This document shows positions 4,766-57,949 of a DNA stretch of 64,000 bases, piece by piece (positions within the stretch are counted from its first letter, which is position 1; the number at the start of each line of letters is the position of its first letter). Under the pieces are notes generated by a model. It was not told the DNA's origin and made no database searches. It saw nothing but the letters and a program-made list of their open reading frames with translations. Location: NCBI GenBank assembly GCA_025612245.1, contig JAAXKQ010000015.1, forward strand, positions 69,362 through 133,361, in the 5' to 3' direction. The translations under genes and the position numbers were made by a program. The DNA is from Ignavibacteria bacterium (lineage in GTDB: Bacteria > Bacteroidota > Ignavibacteria > Ignavibacteriales > SURF-24).

Positions 4766-5605
4766 ATGAAGAAGGCCCTGCCTCTGATTTTATCCGCGCT
4801 TTTTGTTTTTTCTCTGCTCTCGGTAAACCTGAACGCCCAGGAGAGCTACAAACTTAAATATAACTTCCAAAAGGGTAAAACCTATAGTTTCCTGAGCACA
4901 ATGGACGGCAACTTTACTCAGGAGGCCATGGGCACTGAAATGAAAATGAGCGTCAACGGCAACTTTAGCGTAAGCATGAAAGTAGATGACGTTAAAGACG
5001 GCAAAGCCGAACTGATTACCGCTCTCGATTCCGGGAGGATTTCCACCAAAAACCCGATGAAAGACACTACCTTGTCACTTGCCCCTTTTGCAGGCAAAAG
5101 GATCAAACTCACCATGCTCGAAGACGGGACAATTGAACAAACCAGCATCATAGATTCAATAAAGTTTTTCAATGTTACGGGACTTTCACAGAATAACCTG
5201 ATCCGCTTCATTAAGCTCCCTAAAGGGGAGGTAAAACCTGGCGTTCCATGGAACATGGTATCAAACGATACAGTTGAAATGATGGGCGCCGGAAAAATGA
5301 CCAATACCATCAACTCTACCTATACCATCGTTGGAAAAGAAAAGGTCCGGGGACACGAATGCCTTAAGGTTACCTATACGGGCGACGTAAAGAACAGCGG
5401 ACAGACTCAGGTGATGGGTATGAACCTGGTAATCGAGGGAACAGGCAAGATATCGGGCAGCCTGTACTTCGATCCTGTAATGGGTATGGCAATTAAAAAC
5501 GACGGCAGCATGGATAACGAAATGACCATGGCCGCTACGGGCCAGCAGAACATGATTATGCCTATTACACAATCTGTAAAGACTTCCATCTCCCTGGTCG
5601 AGTAA
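4766..5605 (+). CDS. secreted hypothetical protein (signal peptide; possibly DUF6263-like)
   Basis: Cleavable signal peptide (LSVNLNAQE), good RBS AGGAGAG, no recognisable catalytic motif. Beta-rich composition. Confidence 0.5.
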   Translation: MKKALPLILSALFVFSLLSVNLNAQESYKLKYNFQKGKTYSFLSTMDGNFTQEAMGTEMKMSVNGNFSVSMKVDDVKDGKAELITALDSGRISTKNPMKDTTLSLAPFAGKRIKLTMLEDGTIEQTSIIDSIKFFNVTGLSQNNLIRFIKLPKGEVKPGVPWNMVSNDTVEMMGAGKMTNTINSTYTIVGKEKVRGHECLKVTYTGDVKNSGQTQVMGMNLVIEGTGKISGSLYFDPVMGMAIKNDGSMDNEMTMAATGQQNMIMPITQSVKTSISLVE

Positions 5606-5700: not shown

Positions 5701-6207
5701 TTAGTTCAGAGCCAGCAGGGGTTTATTTTCATCGGCTAAAGCAATTTCTTCTACTTTCAGCTTTAAGACCCCGGGCTTTATGATTCCCAGAGCTAGTGCA
5801 GCACCCCTGGATAGGTCGAGCTGCCTGCCGCTGATATAAGGACCTCTGTCGTTGATCCTTACTATGACAGATTTCGCGTTCTTTGGATTTGTAAGTTTTA
5901 AAAGCGTCCCGAACTTGAAGTACTTGTGGGCGGCAGTAAAAGCCATCTGGTTATACACTTCGCCATTGGCTGTCATTTTGCCATGAAATCTTGGTCCGTA
6001 CCAGGAGGCGGTCATTCTGCCTTTGTCTAAGAACTGAATAAAAGAACTCTCTTGCTTTACAGCATTTTCGCTTTGCGTATTGTTACTTAATTCTTTTATT
6101 CCAGCACTTTGACCGGTCTTGTTGTCGCCTAGCTCCTTGTGTATAATGGTAAATCCGACCAGTAGCAACATGGCAAACATTACTAGTGCTTTTGTTATTG
6201 ATGTCAA
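5701..6207 (-). CDS. rlpA: septal ring lytic transglycosylase RlpA family (DPBB domain) protein
   Basis: WYGPRFHGKMTANGEVYNQMAFTAAHKYFKFGTLLKLTNPKNAKSVIVRINDRGPYISGRQLDLSRGAA is the canonical RlpA double-psi beta-barrel signature. Confidence 0.85.
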   Translation of the reverse strand: MTSITKALVMFAMLLLVGFTIIHKELGDNKTGQSAGIKELSNNTQSENAVKQESSFIQFLDKGRMTASWYGPRFHGKMTANGEVYNQMAFTAAHKYFKFGTLLKLTNPKNAKSVIVRINDRGPYISGRQLDLSRGAALALGIIKPGVLKLKVEEIALADENKPLLALN

Positions 6208-6635
6208 ATATACCTCTCATTTCTGTTAATTAAATATCATCTACTATAAATTAACGGCATTTGCATTCTTATTACAATAATTTAGTACCCACCGAAGGGG
6301 GCGTAAAAGGCTATTCGAATCCTCGACTATATGCCTATAGATATTCGGGTTTCATGAAATTTTTCAAAATTTTTAATTTTTTTGTACTTCTTTTTAGATT
6401 TATTTTTCATATTATTAAATTAAGCACATTTATAAATCTCTCCGCTCCCCGGGGCTAAGGCAAAACTTTGTGGCCTGCCCTGTCTGACCCTCCTTCTTTT
6501 TCTTTCCCGGTCAGTTATCACTTTATCCTATCTATATTATATATGAAGTTAAATTGAGCAATTAGAGTAATGTATCTTTGCTTTATTTTCCTTAAATTGT
6601 CACGCAGTAAAAAACATTTTATTCACGGAGAATTG

Positions 6636-8093
6636 ATGGATAGGAAAATCACAGCCTTCATCCCATACAGCGGTAATGACTATACCAGGAAGACAGTCAG
6701 TGAACTGGTAAACTCAGGACTGGTGGACAAGTGCTATTTAATTGCAACCTCAGAAGTTGGAAATAACATTGAGGGATGCGAAATCATCAAAGTTGAGTCC
6801 CTTTTCAGCAGCGAGACCATCTCACAGCTCAAAGAGAAATCAAATGCCGATTATACTTTATTTATAACACAGGATAACCTGATAGAATTCGGACAGTTCG
6901 GAATTGAAAGATTCCTTCACGTTGCCGAAGACACCGGGGCAGGACTTGTCTATTCAGATTATTATGAAGTTAAGGAAGGAAAAAGGTCAGCTCTTCCTGT
7001 AATAGATTACCAGGTTGGCAGCATCAGAGACGATTTTAATTTCGGTTATGTCTATTTCTTCAGCACAAAGGCCCTTAAAGAAGTAGCCGGCGAAGAAAAA
7101 TACAAGTTTGCCGGACTTTATGACCTCAGGCTTAAAATTTCGCAGAAATATGCATTTCTACGCGTACCGGAATTCCTTTATGCAACCATTGAAACTGACG
7201 TCCGCAAAACCGGCGAAAAACAGTTCGACTACGTTAACCCTAGAAACCGCAGCGTCCAGATTGAAATGGAAATTGCAGCTACTGAACACCTTAAGAAAGT
7301 AAAGGCTTACCTTAAGCCGGAATTCAAGGAAATCGACCTTACGGCCGGCAATTTCGAGTTTGAAGCCTCGGTTATCATCCCCGTCAGAAACAGGGTCAAA
7401 ACCATTGGCGACGCCGTAGAGTCCGTTCTGAAACAGAAAACCGACTTCCCGTTCAACCTTATCGTGGTCGATAACCATTCGACCGACGGCACATCCGATG
7501 TCCTTCAAAAAGCCGCCGCCAAAAACAGCAAGCTCATCCACGTTGTCCCTGAAAGAGACGACCTCGGTATTGGCGGATGCTGGAACCTGGGCGTCCATCA
7601 CGAAAAATGCGGCCGCTTTGCCATTCAGCTCGATAGCGACGACATGTACAAGGATGAAACTACGGTCCAGAAAGTCGTCGATAAGTTCAGGGAAGAAAAG
7701 TGCGCCATGGTTATCGGTAGCTACCAGATGACAAACTTTAAGCTCGAAGAGATCCCTCCTGGAATTATTGACCATAAGGAGTGGACACCCGATAACGGAC
7801 GCAACAATGCACTCAGAATTAACGGCCTCGGCGCCCCGCGCGCTTTCTATACCCCGCTTCTCAGGGAAATTAAACTCCCTAACGTAAGCTACGGCGAGGA
7901 TTACGCCCTCGGACTTGCAATTTCCAGGGAATACCAGATCGGCAGGATCTACGAGCCGATTTACCTCTGCCGCAGATGGGAAGGCAACTCAGATGCCGCT
8001 CTGGACATCAATAAGGCTAATACTTATAACGTATATAAAGACAGAATCAGAACCATTGAACTTTTAGCACGTCAGAGAAAAAATTCCTTATGA
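6636..8093 (+). CDS. two-domain glycosyltransferase: N-terminal domain of unknown function plus C-terminal family 2 glycosyltransferase
   Basis: C-terminal half has GT2 motifs (IIPVRNR..., [16 protein letters not shown] = DxD). Start chosen at ATG 6636 with GGAGA RBS; the track ORF starts upstream at 6570. Confidence 0.8.
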
Positions 8094-9103
8094 GAGATAC
8101 TACTATAATTAAAGATATAGAATTACAACCATATATTTCATCAGATGATCTGGCAGGCAAAGCGAAAGCTTTGCTTGCCCAGCAAAAAGGCAGCTGGGAA
8201 CTGCTCAGCAAGGGCTACAAAAGCCTGGAGAGCATTGAGGTTAAAAATTTTGAGTTCGAACATTTCAAAATAAAGGTCCAGTTCAACCCCGGAAGAATCG
8301 TTTCTTCTTCTGCAAAAGTCGACCCTAAGTCGATTAAGGAGAGAAAATGCTTCCTTTGCCCCGATAACCTCCCGGGCGACCAGAAAGGAATCCTTTATAA
8401 GGATGACTACATCTTGCTCTGCAACCCGTTCCCTATTTTCAACGAGCATTTTACAATTCCCAAAACAGGCCATGTGCCCCAGGAAATAAAAAGCTCGCTG
8501 CCAGCCATGCTGGAGCTGAGCAGGGATTTAAGCCGTTACTACACCGTTTTCTATAACGGCCCTAAGTGCGGCGCTTCGGCACCCGACCACCTTCACTTCC
8601 AGGCTGGCGACAAGGGCTTCATGCCAATCGACAGCGAATACTGCGGAATAAGGGAAAGTCTTGGCCGTAAGATCATTAGCTGCAACGACTTACAGGTCTT
8701 TGCAATTGACAGATACCTTGGTAAATTCTTCTCATTTGAGTCTTCAGACAGCGAAGCCATCGTAAAAGCCTTCAACAGCTTTTATAACATCTTCAGCGCC
8801 ACTTCCCCCAACACAGGCGAAGAGCCGATGATGAACATCCTTTCGTTTTATGAAGACGCAAAGTGGCATGTGCTCGTATTCCCAAGGGCAAAACACCGCC
8901 CGAGCTACTTCTTCATGGAAGGAGACGACAATATTCTCTTAAGCCCGGCTTCAGTGGATATGGGAGGCGTGCTCATTACCCCGCTTGAAAAGGATTTTAA
9001 CAAGATCACAAGAGAAAATATAGTTGATATATTCAGACAGGTAACACTTCAGGATGAAACCTTCGGCACTATTGCTGAAAAGCTTGCCAGGCTCTATTCC
9101 TAG
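8090..9103 (+). CDS. DUF4922-like / GalT-HIT superfamily nucleotidyltransferase-phosphorylase (GDP-hexose phosphorylase-like)
   Basis: HLHFQ histidine motif (HxHxQ of GalT/Ap4A-phosphorylase-type HIT proteins), [15 protein letters not shown]. Its ATG overlaps the GT2 stop (ATGA), implying translational coupling. Confidence 0.55.
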
Positions 9104-9115
9104 TTAATACAATTT

Positions 9116-9146
9116 AGAGAGGCTTTGTGAACCCAAAGCCTCTCTT
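9116..9146. terminator. bidirectional hairpin terminator between convergent genes
   Basis: agagaggcttt-gtgaaccc-aaagcctctct: 11-bp perfect stem. Confidence 0.5.
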
Positions 9147-9190
9147 TAGCTCAAAATTCCACCTTAGCCGGGTCCACGGCATAACTCCCT

Positions 9191-10576
9191 TTACTGCTCC
9201 TCATAGGAGATGTTATACTTTTCCATAAACCTGTAGACCGTGGCCCTCCCGATCTCAAGTTTTTTTGCCGCCTCTACAATGTTTCCGTTTGTAACCTTGA
9301 GCGCGTGCCTTATGGCCTCTTCCTTCAGCTTGTCAAAAGAAATGATCTGACTCTCGTCACCAAAAAGAGGTCCTGCAAAAGAAAGTGGCGAACTGTTCTC
9401 CGTAGCCCTGACGTTCTGCGGCAGGTCGTTTAAGTCCATGAGATCGGTTTCAGAAAGGATAATGCACCTTTCAATTGTATTTTCCAGCTCCCTGACGTTC
9501 CCGGGCCAGCTGTAGTCGTAGAGAAGCCTGAGCGCGCGCCTGGTAAAGCCTTTGCTGCTTCTTCCGAGCTTTTCATTGAAGGTTTTGACAAAGTGGTCAA
9601 TTAAAGTGAGTATGTCACTCCTTCTTTCCCTTAAAGGTGGAATGATTATGGGGAAAGAATTCAGCCTGTAGAAAAGGTCTTCCCTGAACTCCCTTTTTTC
9701 AACCGCTGCCTTAAGGTCTACGTTTGTAGCCGATATGATCCTAACGTCGGTCTTTATTACCTCCGTACCCCCTACGCGTTCAAGTTCCTTCTGCTGAATA
9801 ACCCTCAGTATCTTTGCCTGAAGCGACATCTGCATTTCGCCTATCTCATCCAGAAATATCGTGCCTTCACTTGCCATTTCAAACTTTCCGATCTTCCTCT
9901 GATAGGCACCCGTAAAAGAGCCCTTTTCGTGCCCGAAAAGCTCGCTTTCCAAAAGTTCGCGCGGAATTGAGGCGCAATTAACCACAACAAAAGGCTTGTC
10001 CTTTCTTATGCCGTTATAATGAATTGCCCTTGCAATGAGCTCCTTTCCTGTACCGCTTTCGCCGTGTATGAGTACTGTAATGTCGTTATCCAGCACTTTG
10101 GAGACCATCTTAAAGACGTCCTGCATCTTGCTGTCGGAAGAGATGATATTGTCGAAACTGTACTGCTTCTTTACATCTTCCTTCAAAATCGTGAGCTCTT
10201 TTTGCAGGTCGTGGTTCCGGATTGCATTTTTGACTGCCGGCTCAAGGCGCTGTGTATCTATCGGTTTCGGGAAATAGTCGAACGCCCCTAGGCGCAGTGC
10301 CTCAACGGCAACCTCAATGCTTCCCTGGGCCGAAAGCATTATAATGGGTATGTCTTCATTGAACTGCTTTACCCTTTTAAGAATCTCAATGCCGTCGATA
10401 TCCGGCAGCATAATGTCCAGCAGAATGAGATCCGGACATACTGCAGAAAGCCTCCTGAACATTTCCTGCCCATTTTCAAAGACTTCAACCTTGTATTTCC
10501 ATTTATCCCTGACCCAGTATGTCAGCAGCTTGGAGATTGCCTTTTCGTCGTCAACAATAAAAACCAGTTTTTCCAA
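9191..10576 (-). CDS. sigma-54-dependent response regulator (NtrC family: REC + AAA+ + Fis HTH)
   Basis: REC domain with phosphoacceptor Asp (LILLDIMLPDIDG). AAA+ sigma-54 activator motifs GESGTGKE and GAFTGA (as ESELFGHEKGSFTGA). C-terminal HTH. Confidence 0.9.
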   Translation of the reverse strand: MEKLVFIVDDEKAISKLLTYWVRDKWKYKVEVFENGQEMFRRLSAVCPDLILLDIMLPDIDGIEILKRVKQFNEDIPIIMLSAQGSIEVAVEALRLGAFDYFPKPIDTQRLEPAVKNAIRNHDLQKELTILKEDVKKQYSFDNIISSDSKMQDVFKMVSKVLDNDITVLIHGESGTGKELIARAIHYNGIRKDKPFVVVNCASIPRELLESELFGHEKGSFTGAYQRKIGKFEMASEGTIFLDEIGEMQMSLQAKILRVIQQKELERVGGTEVIKTDVRIISATNVDLKAAVEKREFREDLFYRLNSFPIIIPPLRERRSDILTLIDHFVKTFNEKLGRSSKGFTRRALRLLYDYSWPGNVRELENTIERCIILSETDLMDLNDLPQNVRATENSSPLSFAGPLFGDESQIISFDKLKEEAIRHALKVTNGNIVEAAKKLEIGRATVYRFMEKYNISYEEQ

Positions 10577-10603
10577 TTTTTCCTCGGTTAATTACCCAAT
10601 CGT

Positions 10604-12523
10604 TTAATTGCTTTTTGGTAGCTTTATAATAAAAGTAGTACCCTTGTTTACTTCACTCTGCACGGAAATTAGCCCCTTGTGCATGTCAATGATCTGTTTA
10701 ACAAGCCCGAGCCCAATTCCGGATCCCGGTATCTGCGAAATGCCGGGGCGTGCCGCTTTGTAGAATTTCTGGAATATGTTGGGCAGATCCCTTGAAGGAA
10801 TGCCTATACCCGTATCGCTTACTATAATTTCAAACTCCCTCCTGAAATCCTGCGCAATTAAAGTAACTCGCCCATCCCTGCCCGTAAATTTAATTGCATT
10901 GCTTACCAGATGCTGAATTACCTGCGAAATCCTCTCCTTGTCGGCCGTAATTAGCACCGGATGTTCCGGTATCTCTGAGGTAAGTGCTATGGCCTTCTGC
11001 CTGGCTTCATCGTTCAGGCCGGCCATTACCGACTGAAGGGTTTCCACAATGTCGAATTCCGTTTTGAAGACGTCCAGCTTCCCTGCTTCCATTTTGGCAA
11101 AGTCAAGCACGTCATTGATCAGTTTTGCCAGACGCTTACCCTCGCTTAAGATTATATTGCTGAATTCCAAGATCATCTCCCTCGGCATGTTGGGATCCGA
11201 GGTTATGGTTTCAGCAAAACCTACAACCGAGGCCAGTGGAGTCCTGAGCTCATGTGAAATGTTTGAAATAAAATCGCTTTTAAGTTTATTCAGCTCCTCA
11301 AGGACGGAGACCTGCTGCTTTGCGCGGTCGCGCTCTATGGAAATAAGCCTGTTTGCCTCAATGAATCTGGAGTTCAGTTCCCTCAATTTCCCCTCGTCTT
11401 TGCGACGCTGCGTAATGTCTCGCCCAATGCCGAGCATGCCCGTAATCTCGCCGTTATTCAACGTGGGACGGCACTGCACCTCAAAAAATATTTCCTTGCC
11501 GAACTTGTCTAAAAATGCGGCGTCGAAGGATACCAGCTTGTCTGACTTCAGTATCTGCTGGAACGCTATGGCTATTTCGGCCTTGTAGTCGTCGCTTATA
11601 AACTCCAGGAAATGACGCTGCAGCATCTCCTCCGGCTTATAGCCCAGTGCAAGCGCCCCGTAGTTGTTTACCATCAAAAAGTAACCCGAGCTGTCGAGGT
11701 TAAAAATGAGGTCATTTGCCGTCTCAATGAGCAGACGGAAGCGTTCCTCCGACTTTTCAAGCCTGAGCTGCGTTTCCTTTTCTTTTGTGATGTCGCTCAC
11801 CACTCCGTCTATTCTTACAATCTCGTGGTTCTTTTCAACGGGAAATCCTGAATTCCTGAGGAAATGCATGCTGCCCGAGGTGTCTTTTACCTGGTACTCC
11901 ACTGTGGCACTTGAGCCGCCTCTGAGCTGGTTAATAAACTCCCTGTATTTTGCCAGGTGCTTTGGTTCTATACGCCTTAAAAACCGGCCCGGATTTTCCA
12001 TCAGCTCTGAAGGCGAATAGCCCAGTATCTTCTTTACGGCATCCGTAATGAAAAGGTATTTCTCCCCTTTCACATCGGTAGAATAAATTATGGCTTCTAT
12101 GTTGCCTGCAGCCTCAACCAGCGTCTGCTTTATATTTTTTAATCCGGCAACTTCCATATATTCGCAAAGGAAGTCCTCAAGGAGCCTCACATTTTCCAGG
12201 CGGAATGGGCTGAAATGCCTGTTTTTTTCTGAGAACAGGACAAGAAACAAAGCCCCCTCGTCTTCGGCATTATTATCCAGTTTTTTTATGTAAACGGACC
12301 TGAGTCCGGTTTTTACGGAAAGCTCCCTGAAAGAAGCCCAGTTTACGGCACCTCCAAGTTCCGCCTCCGCCGCCCCGTTTATATCCTGGTTCAGCTCGCT
12401 AAAGAGGCTTTCCGTTCCTGCCCCTGAAAATGCTTCAATGCGCGCTCCTTTTAGCAGATAAGCCGTTCTGCTGTGGCTTAAATTTGCTATGAGCTGTATT
12501 ATATTTGATATCTTAGTCTGCAT
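10604..12523 (-). CDS. cytoplasmic sensor histidine kinase (GAF-like + 2 PAS + HisKA + HATPase_c)
   Basis: H-box SHELRTPL, then N, G1 and G2 boxes (DTGIGI, GSGIGLGL). No TM segments. Lies 27 nt upstream of the response regulator, so an operon. Confidence 0.85.
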   Translation of the reverse strand: MQTKISNIIQLIANLSHSRTAYLLKGARIEAFSGAGTESLFSELNQDINGAAEAELGGAVNWASFRELSVKTGLRSVYIKKLDNNAEDEGALFLVLFSEKNRHFSPFRLENVRLLEDFLCEYMEVAGLKNIKQTLVEAAGNIEAIIYSTDVKGEKYLFITDAVKKILGYSPSELMENPGRFLRRIEPKHLAKYREFINQLRGGSSATVEYQVKDTSGSMHFLRNSGFPVEKNHEIVRIDGVVSDITKEKETQLRLEKSEERFRLLIETANDLIFNLDSSGYFLMVNNYGALALGYKPEEMLQRHFLEFISDDYKAEIAIAFQQILKSDKLVSFDAAFLDKFGKEIFFEVQCRPTLNNGEITGMLGIGRDITQRRKDEGKLRELNSRFIEANRLISIERDRAKQQVSVLEELNKLKSDFISNISHELRTPLASVVGFAETITSDPNMPREMILEFSNIILSEGKRLAKLINDVLDFAKMEAGKLDVFKTEFDIVETLQSVMAGLNDEARQKAIALTSEIPEHPVLITADKERISQVIQHLVSNAIKFTGRDGRVTLIAQDFRREFEIIVSDTGIGIPSRDLPNIFQKFYKAARPGISQIPGSGIGLGLVKQIIDMHKGLISVQSEVNKGTTFIIKLPKSN

Positions 12524-50173: not shown

Positions 50174-52072
50174 TTAATTTAAGCTTACCTGCGTACCCGC
50201 CTCTTCGGCAGGAGCTTCACCGCTTGGTCCGGCTTCAGCTCCTTTCGGCAGCTTATCCTTTATAATCATCGCAAGAAGAGTATTCACAAGCGAGTTTCCA
50301 TCTGCTCCGCTTCCGCTGCCTCCGGCTACAATGTCCGGAACAAGCTTAAATCCGCTCGTGGCTAGCGCCTTTGCTACTTCTATTGCCGCATAGTTGCCCG
50401 ATTCCATCGACTTTATCTTCATCGTTATAACGTCAGCTTCAGCCGTACCAACAGCCTTGATCTTATCTCCCTCGGCAGCACCTACGGTCTTTAATACCAT
50501 TGCATCTGCTTCGGCATTGATCTTCTTCGATTCTGCCGTACCGCCTGCACTCTTTACAGCCGCCTGCGCTTCAAATTCGCTGATCTGCACTTTACGTTCC
50601 GCATCAACTACCCTCGCCTGCGTATCGGCAAGTGCCCTTGCCTGCTGAAGCTCCTTGCGCGTATCTTCCGCAAGCCGCTGTGTATCGTAAGTAACTTTCT
50701 CCTGCTCCGCTATCTTGCGGTCCGTTAGCGTCTTCATGAGCTCTTCCGGCGGCACTATGTCGCCTATTAAAGTATCAACTGCGCCAACGTTATAATCCTG
50801 CAGCGCTCTTGATATGCTCTGCCTTGCGTCATCCTGACGCTCCTTACGGCCTTTGAGGAATTCAATTACATCAGACCCCTGTGCCGTATTGCGGAAGTAA
50901 TTGCCAATTGTGGGCTCAAGCACCTGCGTAACCAGATTCGCCACGCTTCCGAAACGCGCAATTACCTTCGGGGCATCGGTGCTTGGAATGTGTATAATCT
51001 GACTTACGTCAAGACTGAATGTAAAGCCGTCGGAGGAGCGGACTTTAATTGTTGAGAGCTTTTCATCAAGCTTGTGCGATTCGGTTTTGCCGGTAGCCCA
51101 GTTGAGTACTACGTTCGCTGTAGGCACAATCTCTACTTTATGAGTATATGGATTAATAGGATACTTTCCCGGATCAAGCGGCTTAACCCAAACACCCTTC
51201 TGTCCCCTGCTTACAAGATTTCCATGCTTGAATGTTTCACCCGTAACGTCCACTCCCATATCGCCCACATAGGCAATTACAACGCCCACGTTTGCAATAG
51301 GTACGGTAGTCATTTCTTTGATTTCTACTGTTGCAAATCTTGGATTGATGTAATAACGCCCGGCCAGAATCACCTGCTCCTGAAGTCCCTTGTAGCCGCC
51401 GTTATCGAGGAATATCTGCCCGTCCTGGAAGCTGTTATGCCCGGGTATTTCACGGCCTGCAATTTCTCCGGTCTGCAGCGGCAGGCCTTCGCGTGTAGTA
51501 ACAATGCCCACCATATTGTCATCAATTTCAAGCGCCGCTTCTTCAACAACAGTGAATAGTGAAGTATTGATGCGGTAAGTACCCGGCGGAATAATGGTAA
51601 TTTGCGGACCGCGTTCGCCTCCGTTAAGAAGGAAGTCGCGTGCGCTCTGGAATGAATCGCAGTTCACCTTCTTGGCAAGCACGCGTCCGTCCTTAAGAGG
51701 ATGACCGTCCCTTGCCTCAACGATGCCGATATTGCCTTCTTTGATGTTGATGAATTTCTGTTTGGTAACTTCATACTGCCAGGGCCAGAGCCAGAAATGG
51801 AGCCCCGGCGCAAGAGTATCTGCCTGGTAGCCGGCCTCGCCATTCAGTGCTATAATAGCCCCGTCGGGGAGCATGCGGTGTTTGCCCAGAAGTACGAACT
51901 TTTTATTAACAATGCCTATTGAGTCTTCAGGAATAATAACAATTCCGAAGAATCGTAAAATCAATTTGTTGGCTACTATGAGAAGAATAATAACTATAAT
52001 CCACCAGTAGCTGCCCAGGAAATTTGCCAGTCCCACGTTGCGGCTCCTATAATTGTGATAAAAATACGACAT
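50174..52072 (-). CDS. flotillin family (SPFH/band-7) membrane protein
   Basis: N-terminal TM, SPFH domain, C-terminal Ala/Glu-rich coiled-coil flotillin repeats. 632 aa. Confidence 0.8.
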   Translation of the reverse strand: MSYFYHNYRSRNVGLANFLGSYWWIIVIILLIVANKLILRFFGIVIIPEDSIGIVNKKFVLLGKHRMLPDGAIIALNGEAGYQADTLAPGLHFWLWPWQYEVTKQKFINIKEGNIGIVEARDGHPLKDGRVLAKKVNCDSFQSARDFLLNGGERGPQITIIPPGTYRINTSLFTVVEEAALEIDDNMVGIVTTREGLPLQTGEIAGREIPGHNSFQDGQIFLDNGGYKGLQEQVILAGRYYINPRFATVEIKEMTTVPIANVGVVIAYVGDMGVDVTGETFKHGNLVSRGQKGVWVKPLDPGKYPINPYTHKVEIVPTANVVLNWATGKTESHKLDEKLSTIKVRSSDGFTFSLDVSQIIHIPSTDAPKVIARFGSVANLVTQVLEPTIGNYFRNTAQGSDVIEFLKGRKERQDDARQSISRALQDYNVGAVDTLIGDIVPPEELMKTLTDRKIAEQEKVTYDTQRLAEDTRKELQQARALADTQARVVDAERKVQISEFEAQAAVKSAGGTAESKKINAEADAMVLKTVGAAEGDKIKAVGTAEADVITMKIKSMESGNYAAIEVAKALATSGFKLVPDIVAGGSGSGADGNSLVNTLLAMIIKDKLPKGAEAGPSGEAPAEEAGTQVSLN

Positions 52073-52467
52073 AGAAACTAGATAATTCCCCGTTAATTAG
52101 CAAAGGACTAAAACTTTTCCAATTCCTTCTCTCTGGCTCTTGGTTCTGTGAAAGCTTCACATGAAGGAATTCTAATAGCCTGATATTCGTCTCCGGCATA
52201 TTTTGAGTCGAAAAGCCAGGGGAGCATTCCCGCCGGGTCGTTCAATAAGTAAGGCAATAATGCCCCCAGACTTTTCAATTGCATCAATTGCTTAATATGG
52301 GTATTTATACCCTTTCAGGTATAGTTTAGGTTAATTATCTTGTTTTATACCTTATTGGGTATAATTTTTGCAAAAACACTTGATATTATACCCGAGGTGT
52401 TCAGCCGAAACTTTCTCTTGAAATTGAAAGAGCAGGAAAGGATAGACATAATAAAAGGTTTACAATA

Positions 52468-53172
52468 GTGGGCCTTTGGGGCAATTTCATTTTAAAGCCT
52501 CCAATGGAGGAATATTTTCAGATGCCGGAAATTGAAGATCTGACAATGCATCTGTCTGAGATGTTAAAAATCAGAACAGCTGAGCATACGTTAATACGCC
52601 TTAATTCCGGTGAGCTTGCTTATTTATCAAAACGCTTCGACCGAACCGCAAAAAATAAACTTCAGCTTAAGGATATGGCACAGCTTACCGGTACTCTTAC
52701 AGAACGTAAATACAAAAGTTCCATGGGAAAAATCGGCAAAACAATACTTAAATATTCAAGCTATCCGAAATTTGACCTCCTGACATTTTTCGAACTCACG
52801 GTGTTTTCTTTTCTGACGGGAAACGCAGATATGCACCTGAAGAACTTTTCTCTTCTTACAAACAACGAAGACGAGGTAATGCTTTCTCCAGCTTATGACC
52901 TGCTTTCAACAAAGCTCCTTATTCCGGAAGATACAGAAGAAATGGCTCTTACGTTAAACGAAAAGAAAAGCAATCTTAAGAGAAGGGATTTTGACACGTT
53001 TGCTGAATCACTTCAGATAAACAGCACGTCTGTAAACAACTCATACCGGAAGTTTTTTAGCAGTGAACCTATGATACTTGAGTTTATCGATAAAAGTTTT
53101 TTACAGCCAGAACTCAAAGAGGCTTATAAAAAGCTCTATTCAGAAAAGATTGAAAAACTTAAAAATCAGTGA
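52468..53172 (+). pseudogene. 5'-truncated HipA-like Ser/Thr kinase toxin gene (C-terminal catalytic half only)
   Basis: AYLSKRFDR, DMHLKNFSLL and SPAYDLLS are collinear with E. coli HipA RFDRR / DGHAKNFS / PFYDIIS. The upstream GAQEK P-loop region is absent. Operator-like palindromes sit upstream. Confidence 0.55.
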
Positions 53173-53610
53173 TAAATTGGTAGTATCTAGAATTTAGTGT
53201 AAATGATTTATAATTCAATCCCGGAACGTAGCCCCGAGGGGCGGACAGCGGAGGGATTAAATTTACAGCGACTCTGGAAGTTAACCAGAGGAATTAATAA
53301 ATTAAATCATCTACAAGGAAGAGAGATTATCTCTCTTCTCTATACAGCTTCCCATGCAAGATTATTGAGCAGGTGGTTCATTTTGACTAGGCCCTCAAGT
53401 TCAAGGTCCTTACTCATTATAAGATTATGCATCTGGGCTATAGCATTGGAATTTGACAGCTCGTATTCAAGATTAGATTCTGAGTCATCAACTACTTTAC
53501 AGGCTTTTCTAATGTACTTCTATGCTTTTCAAAGAAAGCTTTAGCTGAAATTACTTCCTTCTTGTCATTCGGCAGTCAAACACCTCCTTAAGACCAGCAA
53601 GATAATATCC

Positions 53611-53997
53611 TCAGTAATAAATAAGATCCTCGTCTTTTTCATCGAACTTCAGGATATTGCTGAAATAGCTTGAGATGCTATTCTTCATAATAACAGGGTC
53701 CTTGGGCTTTACTAATATAAAGTAGTAGCCCGTTTTTTCTTCTTCATATTCTGACCATTTGCTTATTTCTCTAAAACCACTACAATCAATCAATTGTTAG
53801 TCACTGTTACCTATCCAATAATACCCATGACTGTCTTTTGATGCAATAACCATCCAATGTTCTTCATTCTCAACCCTTGCGATGATAGGATAGCCTGTTT
53901 CCAAAGTTTTGCCTATTGCCATCTTGACTTTGGCTTCCTCTTTAATATCACATACCACCGATTCAAGGTCGAACTTGTTTAAGACACGACGAATCAC
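53611..53997 (-). pseudogene. disrupted ORF remnant (two adjacent same-strand fragments separated by a stop)
   Basis: Track ORFs 53797-53997 and 53611-53793 share a strand and are adjacent. Motifs GYPIIARV...HWMVIASKD...NSD are faintly papain/C39_2-like. Confidence 0.25.
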
Positions 53998-54334
53998 ACC
54001 CGCAGATGTACCATATTTTTTGTGACACTTGCGGCCCTATGGCCCATTTCGGAACTTATCGGAAAGCCTAATACAAGTGCTAAGTGTAAAATGGCGTACT
54101 CCCAGCAATCGCCATAGACTTCCTGGTACTTAAACCATACTAGTTCCCTTCGCTTTTAAGTAAGCGGATTAGTTTTTTAATCATTTCATTTACTCCGATT
54201 AGTGATTATAAGGATTTGCCGGGCTTTCCTTTTACTGACATTCTACTTATCCCACTTTTATCCACAGAGAAAATGAAGTAATATACCAGTACTTTTATAA
54301 AATTTTATGGAGTGGACTTCATAATGATGTTAAT

Positions 54335-54367
54335 CTAAAAATAAAAGGGAGATATACTCCCTTTTAT
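54335..54367. terminator. hairpin terminator at the 3' end of the OLD gene
   Basis: aaaagggagatatactcccttttattta. Confidence 0.5.
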
Positions 54368-56263
54368 TTAGCTCTCAATCTCTGCCTTGACAGTATTAAT
54401 AACCATCGGACGCTGCACAAATTCATTAACTCTTCTTAATATATTACGAAGTTCATCCTGAGGATCCCTAATACTGAGAAGTTCTGGAGTCATGTGCTTA
54501 ACTGCCAAAGCATTAAGCCACTTCTTGCATGCAGATTCTTTTTTCTTTTTATTCTCATCATCTAAGCTATCCCATGAATTTGGTGAATCGCTATTTTCCA
54601 ATAGCTTTTGTGCAGCCATTATTGGAACATCATCAAAATCTCCAAACGCAATAACAACTTCTGGCCGAACCCTTTGAACGGCTGTAGGATGAAGGTAGTT
54701 TTCAATCTCTAACTTGGATAAAATATATGCTTCACAGTTGTCTCTGAGATTAGTTTCATCGGCATTTTTTTTGTATTTGGGTTCTTTAGGAGGTATAGTA
54801 TCCCTGTCATAAATATGAATTTCGGGACGATTAAAGCCTTTCAGCCTACTGGTCCAAAGAGCCAGATTAGATCCCCCAAATGGAATGAATATTACAGAAC
54901 CAGCATTTTCCAGATCTTCAAGGTTAGGTATGTCTGGTTCTGTTTGCGCAAGTACCTTAGATATCTCCTTAAAAAAGTTTATATCATTTGGCCCTTCAAC
55001 GCATAAAAACAACTTAACATCATGATCAGCTAATATCCCAAGATCTTTAATTATTCTTTTAATTGTTTCATCATCATCTTTGTGCAGTATTCGCTTCTTA
55101 TCTGCTGTTTTTTCAATATATCTTATGGAGGAAGATGGTATTAAGCGGGCTAATGTAGGCGTGTGTGTAGATATTATCACCTGGCAGTTAGAATTATGGA
55201 CCAATTCAAACAAAGATTCAAGCAACATAACTTGGTTTGTCGGATGCTGAGAGGTTTCTGGTTCTTCAATCGCATATATAATACCTGGCGAATTCCGCTC
55301 GATAGCCTGTTGTTCTGCCTTAGCCCTAAAAAAGTTAATTAAAATTAATCTTCTGACACCACTACCTCGCTTGTTGACAGGGACCTGTGTTTCATCAGTC
55401 AAACTTACCTTAAATATCTTGTCCCATGCAGAATCCAATACTTTCGGGTTTAACTCACTTGCCAGATCTGGATCCATTTCCTTTAATTTGTCAACCGTTG
55501 CCTTACTTACCTTTTCAACTTTCTCCTTAACATTTTGTATAATTTTATCAAGATCGTGCCTTTGGCTTTCCAAAGCTTCTTTGATTGCGACCTTCATAGG
55601 GTCCTGCGCTTCATTGTCCTGGTCTGTGCTTTCTCTATCAGATTTAAACAATGCAAATAAGGGCATTTCTGATTTAATTTTATCCCACATTCTTTTCTGA
55701 TCTTCATCTTTATCTTTTAATTGTATTCGTTGTTCGGCCAATTCAAGATCTGGAAATGAACTCCATATTTTTTGTCTTATCTCGGCCTTAATTGTTTCCT
55801 TAACATCATCAAGACTTACCCCAATATCCTTTGCCCTTTTTCTTAGCTGTGTAATTGTTAGTTGATATAAATCATTGGCATTATCGATGCTAGGATGCAG
55901 AGAATTGAGATAGACTTCCTTTGGCTTTGGTTTTCCACCAGTATATACTTTCACAACTACTAAATTCCCATTTGAATTTAGTAAATACTCATCCTTAAGA
56001 TCTACTACATTTGTTGCATCAATTATTAATGTTTGCGGCACTTCAGTAAATTCACAAGTGATAGTTATATCATCAGAGGCGGAACCAACGCTGATATCGC
56101 CTTGATCCAAAGAGGTATCATTAAAGAATACATTCATTGCATCTAAAATGGCCGACTTACCCGAATCATTCTTAGCAATTAAAGTCGTAAAGTCGTCAAA
56201 CTCAATTTTGAATTTTTCTTTGTAGCATCTGAAGTTTTCAATGGTTAAGGAAACCAGTTTCAT
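54368..56263 (-). CDS. OLD-family ATP-dependent endonuclease (ABC-type ATPase + C-terminal Toprim), standalone class-1-like
   Basis: N-terminal IENFRCY...KNDSGKS Walker A of AAA_15/21 OLD ATPases. IEEPETSQHP signature-like motif. C-terminal Toprim with CVEGPND and YDRD. Confidence 0.8.
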   Translation of the reverse strand: MKLVSLTIENFRCYKEKFKIEFDDFTTLIAKNDSGKSAILDAMNVFFNDTSLDQGDISVGSASDDITITCEFTEVPQTLIIDATNVVDLKDEYLLNSNGNLVVVKVYTGGKPKPKEVYLNSLHPSIDNANDLYQLTITQLRKRAKDIGVSLDDVKETIKAEIRQKIWSSFPDLELAEQRIQLKDKDEDQKRMWDKIKSEMPLFALFKSDRESTDQDNEAQDPMKVAIKEALESQRHDLDKIIQNVKEKVEKVSKATVDKLKEMDPDLASELNPKVLDSAWDKIFKVSLTDETQVPVNKRGSGVRRLILINFFRAKAEQQAIERNSPGIIYAIEEPETSQHPTNQVMLLESLFELVHNSNCQVIISTHTPTLARLIPSSSIRYIEKTADKKRILHKDDDETIKRIIKDLGILADHDVKLFLCVEGPNDINFFKEISKVLAQTEPDIPNLEDLENAGSVIFIPFGGSNLALWTSRLKGFNRPEIHIYDRDTIPPKEPKYKKNADETNLRDNCEAYILSKLEIENYLHPTAVQRVRPEVVIAFGDFDDVPIMAAQKLLENSDSPNSWDSLDDENKKKKESACKKWLNALAVKHMTPELLSIRDPQDELRNILRRVNEFVQRPMVINTVKAEIES

Positions 56264-56464
56264 ATTGACTCCCAGAATAGTATGACAAATGAGTTAATAG
56301 TGAACTATATTCGTGTTCGTTTTTAAGCCATTGTTTTAGAGAATGAATGGAATCACTAAGGAATCAGAATATATAGTAGGAAAAGACAGGCCTTGTTCAT
56401 GGTGTCAGAGTATTTTTTAGATCGGCAGTTAAATTAATATTTATTTTAATGTTAAACAAATTAA

Positions 56465-56492
56465 TCGCCGGTTCGAATCCGGCAGGGTGCAC
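56465..56492 (+). repeat. attR-like direct repeat: copy of the 3' 28 nt of tRNA-Lys
   Basis: Identical to 49985-50012 and followed by a related terminator hairpin. Confidence 0.8.
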
Positions 56493-56874
56493 CAGAAAGC
56501 TTCCGTTCCGCAAGAATTTCGAAGCTTTTTATTTTTATCCTGCGCCGTAGAATTAGATAAGCCCCTTACAACTGCCATGAAATGGCCTTTTATGGAAAAA
56601 CCAATGATGATTAACCTGGGGGCATTTTAATCCTTTCTGATACCCTTTATTGCCATGCTTTTTAAATGCCTCGTGCAATGTGGCGTTGAATCGCCCCAAT
56701 TTTTATGATTATACTTTCCTTATCTTACCTTTTGGCATTTAATTATTATTATCTAAATTTGGGAACAAAAATTCTCCATATGCGTTTTTGTTTCCTTAAA
56801 GATAAGTGACAGATCAGAACCTATTAAACTCTTGGCAACACATATAAAACGCGGCTATATAATTGAGGTTAATA

Positions 56875-57720
56875 ATGATTGTAGGTAAAACAATTCAGAT
56901 ATTTCTTCCTGACGCTAACCCCAGAAGCGTTAAAATTGCAGAAATAACCAGCCGGACCGTTCAGGCGATACTAATCCCAAGAACAAAACTGGATTATATT
57001 TTTGCAAGGGAAGAATTGAATAATGTTGGGGTGTATCTCCTCATTGGAAACCCCGATGAAGACGTAAAACCTTTATTATATATTGGCGAGGCAGAAGATT
57101 GCAAAATCCGGCTTAAACAGCATAATGCTTCAAAAGACTTTTGGAATTACGCAATTGCAATAATCTCCAAAACTCACTACTTCACAAAAACCCACATTAA
57201 ATTTCTTGAATCATTCATGTATCAGGAAGCTAAAAGAATTAACAGATATAAACTGGAAAACAGCACTAATCCCACAATGCCTTATGTATCGGAATCCATG
57301 ACGGCAGATTTAATGGATAACTTTGATACGATAAAAATTCTGGTTTCAACGCTTGGGTTTCCGGTATTTGATGAAATAAAAACAGAACAGAAAGCCGATT
57401 TACTTTACTGTAAAGGCAAAGACGCACATGCAACCGGCCAGCTGACCGATGAAGGCTTCTTGGTATTTTCCGGGTCAAAATGCAACCTGAAGGAAGCAAA
57501 TACCCTTCCCCCATGGGCCACAAAAATGCGCAGGAGACTGATTGAAGAAAAAATATTGCAAGTAAAAGATACCGTGATCGAATTTGCTTCGGACCATCTG
57601 TTTGATTCCCCAAGCGCCGCGGCCACCGCCGTTTTAGCGAGAAATGCAAATGGATGGATAGAATGGAGATATAAGAACAGAAAAACTCTGGATGAAGTAA
57701 AAAGGCAGATTAAAGTATAA
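56875..57720 (+). CDS. GIY-YIG nuclease domain protein with C-terminal DUF4357-like domain
   Basis: GVYLLIGN...LLYIGEAEDCKIRLKQH...N matches GIY-(10)-YIG...R...H..N spacing. C-terminal NGWIEWRY motif. AT-rich like the adjacent island. Confidence 0.65.
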   Translation: MIVGKTIQIFLPDANPRSVKIAEITSRTVQAILIPRTKLDYIFAREELNNVGVYLLIGNPDEDVKPLLYIGEAEDCKIRLKQHNASKDFWNYAIAIISKTHYFTKTHIKFLESFMYQEAKRINRYKLENSTNPTMPYVSESMTADLMDNFDTIKILVSTLGFPVFDEIKTEQKADLLYCKGKDAHATGQLTDEGFLVFSGSKCNLKEANTLPPWATKMRRRLIEEKILQVKDTVIEFASDHLFDSPSAAATAVLARNANGWIEWRYKNRKTLDEVKRQIKV

Positions 57721-57949
57721 AAGGGGACTCGTTTACCCTCCTTGCCCCCTGCTTCTTTATTACAGTAATTTTTAGCCTAAACACGGTAATATTTGCCTTC
57801 AAACGGTAATCCTAACTGCCGTTCCTTACCCCATATTCATTCCGTGCCATGCATAATTTTCAGCAAAAACTTTTTTATGCCTCATCGGGTATAATAACGG
57901 TTCTGCCGCTTCTCCTTGCCTCCAACCGGAGCCCTCCTGCCCCCTTCCT

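Follow-up and report, generated by a model that had tools for sequence, protein, structure and literature searches.

A conserved glycosyltransferase-DUF4922 gene pair of Ignavibacteria as a candidate peptidoglycan-fragment salvage module

Peptidoglycan recycling in Bacteroidota and the locus in Ignavibacteria

Peptidoglycan recycling has been well mapped in Proteobacteria; for Bacteroidota and related groups, gaps are acknowledged. The closest described system is the peptidoglycan-scavenging cluster Tanf_08345-08385 of Tannerella forsythia, which carries a xanthan-lyase-like gene, two gtf genes (Tanf_08350 and Tanf_08355), lytB, ampG, ybbC/namZ1, and murTKQ and is expressed as a single, GppX-regulated transcript (PMC5388701). 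T. forsythia uses GlcNAc-anhMurNAc without a predicted AnmK orthologue (PMC7670621), which documents that a cytoplasmic step is missing. The functions of Tanf_08350 and Tanf_08355 were called unknown in a 2021 preprint (bioRxiv 10.1101/2021.12.02.470905), and in the literature we found no paper assigning a function to the pair.

We analyzed a 64-kb stretch of DNA from an Ignavibacteria genome (the window), in which a gene for a two-lobed glycosyltransferase (gene 1) is followed by one for a DUF4922 protein (gene 2). Matched by gene order and annotation, the pair is the likely counterpart of Tanf_08350/08355. The same gene-order correspondence would make one of the two T. forsythia "glycosyltransferases" in reality a HIT-type phosphorylase. 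The T. forsythia operon shares its gene order with the Bacteroidales loci that we retrieved and has ampG, namZ1, lytB, and murQ, whereas the pair in the window adjoins an RlpA-like gene only.

That gene, the only cell-wall gene adjoining the pair in the window, lies upstream on the opposite strand (5701..6207, minus strand) and encodes a DPBB protein of the lytic-transglycosylase type (PF03330 DPBB_1, E = 1e-20) with a hydrophobic N-terminal anchor. The same divergent neighbor (fam17) is found in 9 related loci. A tblastn search of the 64-kb window did not find homologues of AmpG, NamZ, SpoIID/LytB, MurQ, or MurK. Genes 1 and 2 overlap within CTTATGAGAG: the 4-nt ATGA at 8090..8093 (plus strand) contains the start of gene 2 (ATG at 8090) and the stop of gene 1 (TGA at 8091-8093), as the earlier note had reported, and this arrangement implies translational coupling. 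In the nearest relatives (loci L001, L002, L025, and L026), the tblastn gap between the two genes is likewise zero or negative. Gene 2 is separated from the next gene downstream, which is convergent, by a GC-rich hairpin (9116..9145) with a 12-bp stem containing 6 GC pairs, likely a bidirectional terminator that closes the operon. Given this hairpin and the divergent gene upstream, the pair forms a self-contained two-gene operon here. No RNA element was found by Rfam in 6150-9300, and a sigma-70 scan gave nothing above shuffled sequences. A Bacteroidetes-type TAnnTTTG motif is present at 6573-6580; it was rejected as promoter evidence, since the motif occurs in the window at chance frequency (53 found, 53.7 expected).

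Properties of the two encoded proteins

Gene 1 (6636..8093, plus strand) was delimited from its ORF, start codon, and homologues and encodes a soluble glycosyltransferase of 485 amino acids with two lobes, which we call GT2x2. Its ATG at 6636, inside an ORF of 6570-8093 (+), is the start used by homologues and by P0121, a 485-aa protein from an Ignavibacteria MAG in NCBI that is 100% identical to gene 1; a GGAG ribosome-binding site can be read in the sequence 5 nt ahead (6627..6630, plus strand). The product has the GT-A fold of glycosyltransferase family 2, and its AF2 model has a pLDDT of 87 and a pTM of 0.86. No transmembrane segment was found in it (maximum KD19, 0.74). The C-terminal GT-A lobe (7368..8093, plus strand) corresponds to the GT2 catalytic half that the earlier note had placed behind a domain of roughly 250 residues: Pfam matches PF00535 (Glycos_transf_2) to aa 245-379 (E = 9e-24; 84.7 bits against a cut-off of 23.3). 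It contains a DxD motif, QLDSDD (D333/D335; nt 7632-7643, plus strand), and an ED motif, YGEDY (E421/D422; nt 7896-7901, plus strand). D333-S-D335-D336 and E421-D422 are invariant across 45 sequences, with the roles of the motifs assigned by homology, and from these motifs the C-terminal lobe is predicted to be a catalytically intact, inverting-type GT2.

The first 240 residues (6636..7355, plus strand) have no match in Pfam and none by sequence in the PDB, and a profile of the lobe compared with the PDB gave nothing but a chance match to IFRD2. The lobe is widespread, matching 921 cluster representatives at E < 1e-3, and its conserved elements are a loop, G128-S-x-R-D-D-F-N-F-G137, and a linker helix, FDYV-P-N-R. 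It carries T-Q-D80 where a DxD would be expected, and the ED base is missing. In the AF2 model, the order of strands and helices mirrors that of the C-terminal lobe, and hhalign gave a weak local match between the two lobes (E = 9e-4, probability 23%) that sets "AGLYD" of the first opposite "GEDY" of the second. Judged by hhalign and the order of predicted secondary-structure elements, on which the assignment rests, the domain that the earlier note had called unassigned is in all likelihood a GT-A lobe that has degenerated, rather than a new fold.

The structural neighbors of the GT2 lobe are the biosynthetic GT2s K4CP, TarP, TarS, and SpsA. K4CP, the E. coli K4 chondroitin polymerase (PDB 2z86), has two active lobes, each with a DxD, whereas the N-terminal lobe of gene 1 has T-Q-D; about 247 residues align, equivalent to one lobe, and the polymer-export context is absent around the pair. 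A bifunctional polymerase of the K4CP/PmHAS type was rejected because the N-terminal lobe has neither the DxD nor the catalytic-base motif. Such neighbors, together with a GT2 lobe that holds all the motifs for forward catalysis, would fit an anabolic role in envelope glycosylation, in which the DUF4922 protein makes or edits an NDP-sugar and the GT2 transfers the sugar forward to a cell-wall precursor, a glycoprotein, or a glycolipid. A soluble gene 1 product argues against this, as does the genomic context described below.

Gene 2 (8090..9103, plus strand) encodes a 337-aa DUF4922 protein, a homologue of the nucleotidyl-phosphorylases in the GalT/Apa2 branch of the HIT superfamily. Pfam matches PF16269 (DUF4922) to aa 28-173 (E = 2.7e-60; 203 bits against a cut-off of 23.6), and in precomputed annotation its homologues also bear a PF26216 domain. 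The HLHFQ motif to which the earlier note had drawn attention, H167-L-H169-F-Q171 (8588..8602, plus strand), is well supported, with H167, H169, and Q171 invariant in 40 homologues. Invariance extends to C87, C90, H120, and H167; the C87-F-L-C90 motif (8348..8359, plus strand), with the two histidines, is a candidate structural metal site of the GalT type, which would parallel the Zn site of E. coli GalT. The protein alone, compared by sequence with the PDB, gave nothing relevant. By structure it has the two-lobed GalT/Apa2-like fold, and its best match by far is Apa2; in a profile alignment with Apa2, H169, the predicted nucleotidylated histidine, falls on the histidine replaced by Ala in PDB entry 4i5v. 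The alignment of H169 and the structural match to Apa2 point to the chemistry of a phosphorylase, with phosphate as the acceptor, as in GDPGP1 (PMC7041677).

The GDP-D-glucose phosphorylase GDPGP1/mcp-1 has been reported to contain DUF4922, and the characterized relatives of this domain are phosphorylases, which break NDP-sugars down rather than make them (PMC7041677). GDPGP1/mcp-1 and the plant GDP-L-galactose phosphorylase VTC2 have PF16269 and H-x-H-x-Q as in gene 2, and their type of reaction is NDP-sugar + Pi -> sugar-1-P + NDP. The relatives of gene 2 occur in a peptidoglycan context and are coupled to a GT2, while the eukaryotic enzymes have neither. Yeast Ap4A phosphorylase Apa2 (PDB 4i5t/4i5w) is only 14-18% identical to gene 2, has dinucleoside tetraphosphates as its substrates, and is not partnered by a glycosyltransferase. 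The DUF4922 protein might in principle act alone in the quality control of nucleotide sugars or dinucleotides, in the manner of GDPGP1 or an Ap4A phosphorylase, next to a GT2 that is a separate neighbor. We consider such a housekeeping role very unlikely: the repeated fusion of the two proteins into one chain, and their adjacency in 80-85% of loci seen from either side, argue for a shared pathway.

Conservation, fusion, and neighborhood of the pair

Adjacency was assessed starting from each gene. Among 80 genome loci chosen by DUF4922, the two-lobed GT2 lies directly upstream in about 62; of the 71 metagenome loci that were selected with the N-terminal lobe of the GT2 and could be assessed, DUF4922 follows directly in about 60, six of which are single fused ORFs. 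Conservation of the pair as neighbors, by which the earlier note had proposed to judge the pairing, thus held up in both samples. Many of the related loci are human-gut metagenome contigs. Fusions of both proteins occur in several independent clusters, and Pfam verified proteins of GT2 with DUF4922 (P0274 and P0378), triple fusions of these with SpoIID/LytB (P0307 and P0350), and a GT2x2-TM-AmiA-like fusion (P0256). Natural examples are the fusion MBR6988298.1, of 811 aa, and the triple fusion MDD5779505.1, of 1281 aa. The fusion clusters hold 68, 761, and 61 members on many contigs and are therefore not assembly artifacts. The conserved adjacency and the natural fusions show a functional coupling of the two genes. 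Their association, though strong, is not obligatory: in about 12 Ignavibacteria loci DUF4922 occurs with no such GT2, sometimes beside a GT4, and in 11 loci the GT2 occurs with no DUF4922. Compared with the Bacteroides copies, the products in the window show about 60% (GT2) and about 49% (DUF4922) identity, and identities across phyla are 52-89%. This very high conservation, with no transmembrane segment and no export or polymerase genes, agrees with the view that the pair has a small cytosolic role rather than one in bulk polysaccharide.

We identified the neighbors of the pair in relatives by Pfam and NCBIfam. They are AmpG-family proteins, NamZ (NamZ_N/NamZ_C), SpoIID/LytB-like proteins (163 bits against a cut-off of 83), MurQ (371 bits), a BadF-type kinase, GH3 enzymes of the NagZ type, an AmiA-like amidase, and a D-lactate-dehydrogenase-like FAD oxidase. 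The genes around the pair in relatives include those for MurK-like kinases. At least one peptidoglycan gene is present in 66 of the 76 pair loci of at least 12 kb, and AmpG in 46; the other 10 long loci have no recognizable peptidoglycan neighbor. The Bacteroidales loci have the order fam8, GT2x2, DUF4922, SpoIID/LytB, AmpG, and NamZ; a MurK-like kinase is encoded upstream of this series, and MurQ lies close by. Six metagenome loci (L116, L117, L121, L138, L141, and L144) show the order MurK-like, fam8, GT2, DUF4922, SpoIID-like, AmpG, and NamZ; this MurK-like-first order matches the position of K1058, a second MurNAc kinase encoded just upstream of the T. forsythia cluster (PMC10465942). Signal peptides are present on NamZ, fam8, and RlpA and absent from the free-standing SpoIID/LytB-like proteins. 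In nine loci NagZ is found alongside the pair, so the pair cannot simply replace NagZ everywhere. No AnmK-like gene was detected by tblastn with an E. coli AnmK query in the 160 loci or the window, which is weak negative evidence.

This context bears on the two biosynthetic alternatives. Envelope glycosylation gains from the GT4 that adjoins the pair in Ignavibacteriaceae loci and from the label "glycosylation-related operon" that Niwa (2011), as cited in PMC5388701, gave to Tanf_08345-08370. The conserved neighborhood, however, has no gene for a flippase, a polymerase, a lipid carrier, or export; the proteins fused to the pair or encoded in its operons (AmpG, NamZ, SpoIID-like, MurQ, and NagZ) are degradative or serve uptake; the identity across phyla is unusual for surface-glycan glycosyltransferases; and the destruction of NDP-sugars by characterized DUF4922 relatives runs opposite to their synthesis. 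We therefore regard envelope glycosylation as unlikely.

The other alternative, favored by the earlier note, is a pathway in which GDP- or UDP-hexose is turned in two steps into a compatible solute or another small glycoside of the cytosol. A soluble GT2, the absence of export genes, and an operon that is self-contained in the window all suit it, and gene 1 has a weak, generic likeness to glucosyl-3-phosphoglycerate synthase (PDB 7p5l, E = 0.036). Its score with the model for that enzyme, NF010496, is 38 bits, so far under the cut-off of 262 that a GpgS-like identity was rejected. Phosphatase, osmoregulatory, and solute-transport genes are not conserved beside the pair, the neighbors and fusion partners in most long loci are peptidoglycan related, and the HIT enzyme family degrades NDP-sugars. 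We found no positive evidence for a compatible solute or a novel glycoside and hold this proposal to be highly improbable.

A candidate route for imported cell-wall sugars

Since the module sits in the peptidoglycan-recycling operons of related bacteria, the pair probably processes imported cell-wall sugars. The explanation we favor, and think somewhat more probable than all others together, is that the pair represents, in Ignavibacteria, a conserved module that works in the cytoplasm in the salvage of peptidoglycan fragments, GlcNAc-MurNAc or GlcNAc-anhydroMurNAc. On our best reading, the module would link a glycoside, an NDP-sugar, and a sugar-1-phosphate, with direction and substrates inferred. 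The peptidoglycan context suggests amino-sugar nucleotides over GDP-hexose as substrates of gene 2, and a nucleotide sugar would be the intermediate common to the GT2 lobe and the phosphorylase. AmpG would import a beta-linked amino-sugar glycoside, on which the GT2 would act in an NDP-dependent reverse reaction to give an alpha-NDP-amino sugar. The DUF4922 protein would then phosphorolyse this product to an alpha-sugar-1-phosphate and regenerate the NDP, so that the net reaction would be an ATP-free phosphorolysis. The first step, GT2 in reverse, would run uphill and might be pulled by tight coupling or fusion of the two proteins. We know of no precedent for a GT2 operating in reverse on a simple glycoside. 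In the alternative, anabolic direction, a sugar-1-phosphate would be converted into an NDP-sugar and then transferred by the GT2.

Like the canonical Gram-negative pathway (AmpG-NagZ-AnmK-MurQ, with the AmgK-MurU bypass), this salvage module would have import by AmpG and catabolism by MurQ/MurK, and in both GlcNAc and MurNAc would have to be reactivated. The canonical pathway relies on a GH3 hydrolase and ATP-dependent kinases, in contrast to the GT2, HIT phosphorylase, and cytoplasmic SpoIID-like enzyme of the module. We tentatively extend the salvage reading to this trio, which, through reverse GT2 action, might form a hitherto unrecognized, ATP-independent route for reactivating imported muropeptide sugars; in this specific form the idea is unlikely. 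With an NDP, GT2x2 would split GlcNAc-beta-1,4-(anh)MurNAc, or else act on anhMurNAc by opening its 1,6-anhydro ring, to yield alpha-NDP-GlcNAc or alpha-NDP-MurNAc, and the HIT phosphorylase would interconvert these NDP-sugars with the alpha-1-phosphates on which GlmU or MurU acts.

By gene order, Tanf_08350/08355 correspond to a widespread and strongly conserved pair, which is a concrete candidate for the missing cytoplasmic steps of peptidoglycan salvage in Bacteroidota. The organisms concerned include a periodontal pathogen. If the reading of the trio is true, it would explain the use of GlcNAc-anhMurNAc by Bacteroidota that have no AnmK, such as T. forsythia. If NDP-dependent reverse transfer followed by phosphorolysis is true, NDP-dependent cleavage of a glycoside would be a new enzymology for GT2.

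The gene pair and its setting

The two genes lie on the same strand, gene 1 at 6636-8093 and gene 2 at 8090-9103 (337 aa), and overlap at ATGA. We set the start of gene 1 at the ATG at 6636 because a GGAG precedes it at 6627-6630 and all homologues, including an identical 485-aa NCBI protein, start there. The proteins that are 100% identical to the pair come from an Ignavibacteria MAG. Pfam places Glycos_transf_2 on aa 245-379 of gene 1 (E 9e-24), with no Pfam match to aa 1-240 (the N-lobe), and DUF4922 on aa 28-173 of gene 2 (E 2.7e-60), where an HLHFQ motif occupies aa 167-171. Gene 1 encodes a soluble GT2 whose catalytic motifs are intact and gene 2 a HIT/Apa2-type enzyme with a nucleotidyl-histidine motif, in agreement with the earlier note's description of a coupled glycosyltransferase and HIT-like protein. 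That note also proposed a two-step pathway, by way of a nucleotide sugar, to a compatible solute or small glycoside. This now appears very improbable: the match to the glucosyl-3-phosphoglycerate synthase (GpgS) model reaches 38 bits where the cut-off is 262, and osmoadaptation genes are not conserved near the pair.

Upstream, the neighbor is a divergent RlpA-like DPBB gene. Downstream, a sigma-54 response regulator and a PAS histidine kinase (9191-12523, minus strand) converge on the pair, with a strong hairpin at 9116-9145 between the convergent genes. The pair therefore stands as a two-gene operon of its own. Both regulator families are found on the flanks of the pair in 14 related loci of Ignavibacteria and Bacteroidota as well, and the two genes seen here may control it in this lineage. 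A 279-aa ORF with no Pfam match (4766-5605, plus strand) separates the RlpA-like gene from an M28 peptidase gene. Farther away, GC content falls to 0.37-0.38 at 52000-58000, compared to about 0.46 elsewhere. This stretch carries a HipA_C fragment (52468-53172, plus strand), an AAA_15/AbiEii-like ATPase (54368-56263, minus strand), and a GIY-YIG protein with DUF4357/RAMA (56863-57720, plus strand), and looks like a small defense or mobile island.

Conservation and natural fusions

We scanned one genome per species with a DUF4922 alignment and obtained 80 loci. In about 62 of them the next gene upstream, on the same strand, is the two-lobed GT2; about 5 loci lie at a contig edge, and DUF4922 stands without this GT2 in about 12 Ignavibacteria loci. 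In the reverse test, metagenome contigs were scanned with an alignment of the GT2 N-lobe, and DUF4922 is directly downstream in about 60 of 71 assessable loci and absent from the other 11. The two genes are conserved as neighbors from either side, and the partnership is strong, not obligate. Several Ignavibacteriaceae genomes lack the two-lobed GT2 and have DUF4922 directly after a GT4 gene, and MAG JACRFC01 carries DUF4922 twice: the copy at L030 has GT2 beside it, and the copy at L079 lies in a window-like RlpA context and has no GT2. Five loci with close homologues of the pair come from MAG contigs assigned to Acidobacteriota, Syntrophomonadaceae, Verrucomicrobiota, and Tepidisphaeraceae. 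For at least two of these (L001 and L002), mis-binning looks a better explanation than horizontal transfer, since their proteins are 81-89% identical to those of Ignavibacteria.

A search with the N-lobe alone against 1.84 billion cluster representatives gave 921 matches at E<1e-3, many of them proteins of about 800 aa. Their sequences and Pfam scans identify these as GT2-DUF4922 fusions, and longer proteins as triple fusions that add a SpoIID/LytB domain after the GT2 and HIT domains. Clusters of fused proteins comprise 68, 761, and 61 members from Bacteroidales, Bacteroidaceae, and Mangrovibacterium. The fusions are real, because the clusters span many contigs and six fused ORFs were found independently among the metagenome loci. 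We found no description of them in the literature searched. One further fusion (P0256) joins the two-lobed GT2, by way of a membrane segment predicted near aa 490, to an AmiA-like domain resembling MurNAc-L-Ala amidases; in three Labilibaculum and Marinifilum loci, a gene of this type (PF07313) sits between GT2 and DUF4922. DUF4922 might instead be an independent housekeeping enzyme resembling GDPGP1 or Ap4A phosphorylase, but its fusion to GT2 makes this improbable.

Peptidoglycan-related neighbors

We clustered the ORFs of related loci and named recurrent families by Pfam and NCBIfam. These are SpoIID/LytB (TIGR02669, 163 bits against a cut-off of 83), the exo-beta-N-acetylmuramidase NamZ, AmpG-family muropeptide permeases, MurQ (a MurNAc-6-phosphate etherase), BadF-type (MurK-like) kinases, single-domain GH3 of the NagZ type, an AmiA-like amidase, a GDSL hydrolase, a GNAT acetyltransferase, a large secreted Golvesin_C/fn3 protein, and a D-lactate-dehydrogenase-like FAD oxidase. 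Among 76 pair loci of at least 12 kb, 66 have at least one peptidoglycan-related neighbor and 46 have AmpG.

NamZ, the Golvesin_C protein, and RlpA have signal peptides. The SpoIID/LytB-like proteins of these clusters have none, and the triple fusions contain no strongly hydrophobic stretch over their whole length; the SpoIID-like enzyme is therefore cytoplasmic, a location for which we found no description in the literature searched. In Bacteroidia this gene comes after DUF4922; in loci of Balneolales and of Chitinophagales type, a NagZ-type GH3 takes that place. Only 2 of 123 pair loci contain both, and the two may solve the same step in different ways. A 956-aa protein with FAD-oxidase, 4Fe-4S, and CCG domains, similar to D-lactate/glycolate oxidases, ends the Bacteroides cluster and would suit removal of the D-lactate that MurQ releases.

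The pair could also act anabolically, in forward glycosylation of the envelope. GT2 motifs and an old "glycosylation-related" label favor this, as does the GT4 that adjoins the pair in Ignavibacteriaceae, where the order is SpoIID-like, GT4, sometimes a small ORF, GT2, and DUF4922. However, export and lipid-carrier genes are missing and the partners are degradative, and we consider envelope glycosylation unlikely.

In Bacteroidales, the order is MurK-like kinase, Golvesin_C protein, GT2, DUF4922, SpoIID/LytB, AmpG, and NamZ. The Tannerella forsythia operon has the same gene order: K1058 kinase, Tanf_08345 ("xanthan lyase"), Tanf_08350 and Tanf_08355 (both "gtf"), lytB, ampG, ybbC/namZ1, and murTKQ, a co-transcribed, GppX-regulated stretch (PMC5388701; PMC10465942). 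By synteny, the pair would be equivalent to Tanf_08350/Tanf_08355, and one of the two published "glycosyltransferases" would really be a HIT phosphorylase homologue. Their functions were stated to be unknown in a 2021 preprint (bioRxiv 10.1101/2021.12.02.470905), and our literature search found no later paper assigning one. Tanf_08345 corresponds to the Golvesin_C/fn3 protein, which is secreted, about 1,000 aa long, and directly upstream of GT2, always so in Bacteroidia; Pfam and NCBIfam detected no amidase domain in it.

In the window, we found no AmpG, NamZ, SpoIID, MurQ, or MurK homologue within 64 kb, and the divergent RlpA-like gene is the sole cell-wall gene, a layout common to nine related loci. 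The function of this copy would therefore be assigned by orthology; it shares about 60% (GT2) and 49% (DUF4922) identity with the Bacteroides copies.

A candidate salvage step

The two enzymes are coupled physically and genetically, sometimes with a cytoplasmic SpoIID-like domain, in a conserved context of peptidoglycan uptake and catabolism. The pair is probably a peptidoglycan-fragment salvage module whose enzymes share a nucleotide-sugar intermediate. They would process AmpG-imported GlcNAc-MurNAc or GlcNAc-anhMurNAc in the cytoplasm, with salvage the favored direction. Starting from a beta-linked amino-sugar glycoside and NDP, the inverting GT2 would produce an alpha-NDP-sugar by cleavage, and DUF4922 would phosphorolyze this to an alpha-1-phosphate, returning NDP. 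The net reaction would be an ATP-free disaccharide phosphorolysis. By textbook free energies, the reverse transfer is uphill and the sum of both steps is near equilibrium, which would make sense of the overlap, adjacency, and fusion of the genes. We regard this specific mechanism as tentative, with roughly one chance in four. Three points count against the salvage reading: we know of no precedent for a GT2 running in reverse on simple glycosides, NagZ co-occurs with the pair in nine loci, and either gene is at times present without the other. The documented gap in T. forsythia, use of GlcNAc-anhMurNAc with no predicted AnmK orthologue (PMC7670621), fits this reading.

Both protein families are already known, and the gene pair is drawn in the published operon; at the annotation level it is ordinary. 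We classify it as a putative peptidoglycan-recycling pathway with uncharacterized core enzymes. For cell-wall salvage, where a missing step is acknowledged, it supplies a specific candidate that would be cheap to test, relevant to a periodontal pathogen and to bacteria seen in human-gut metagenomes.
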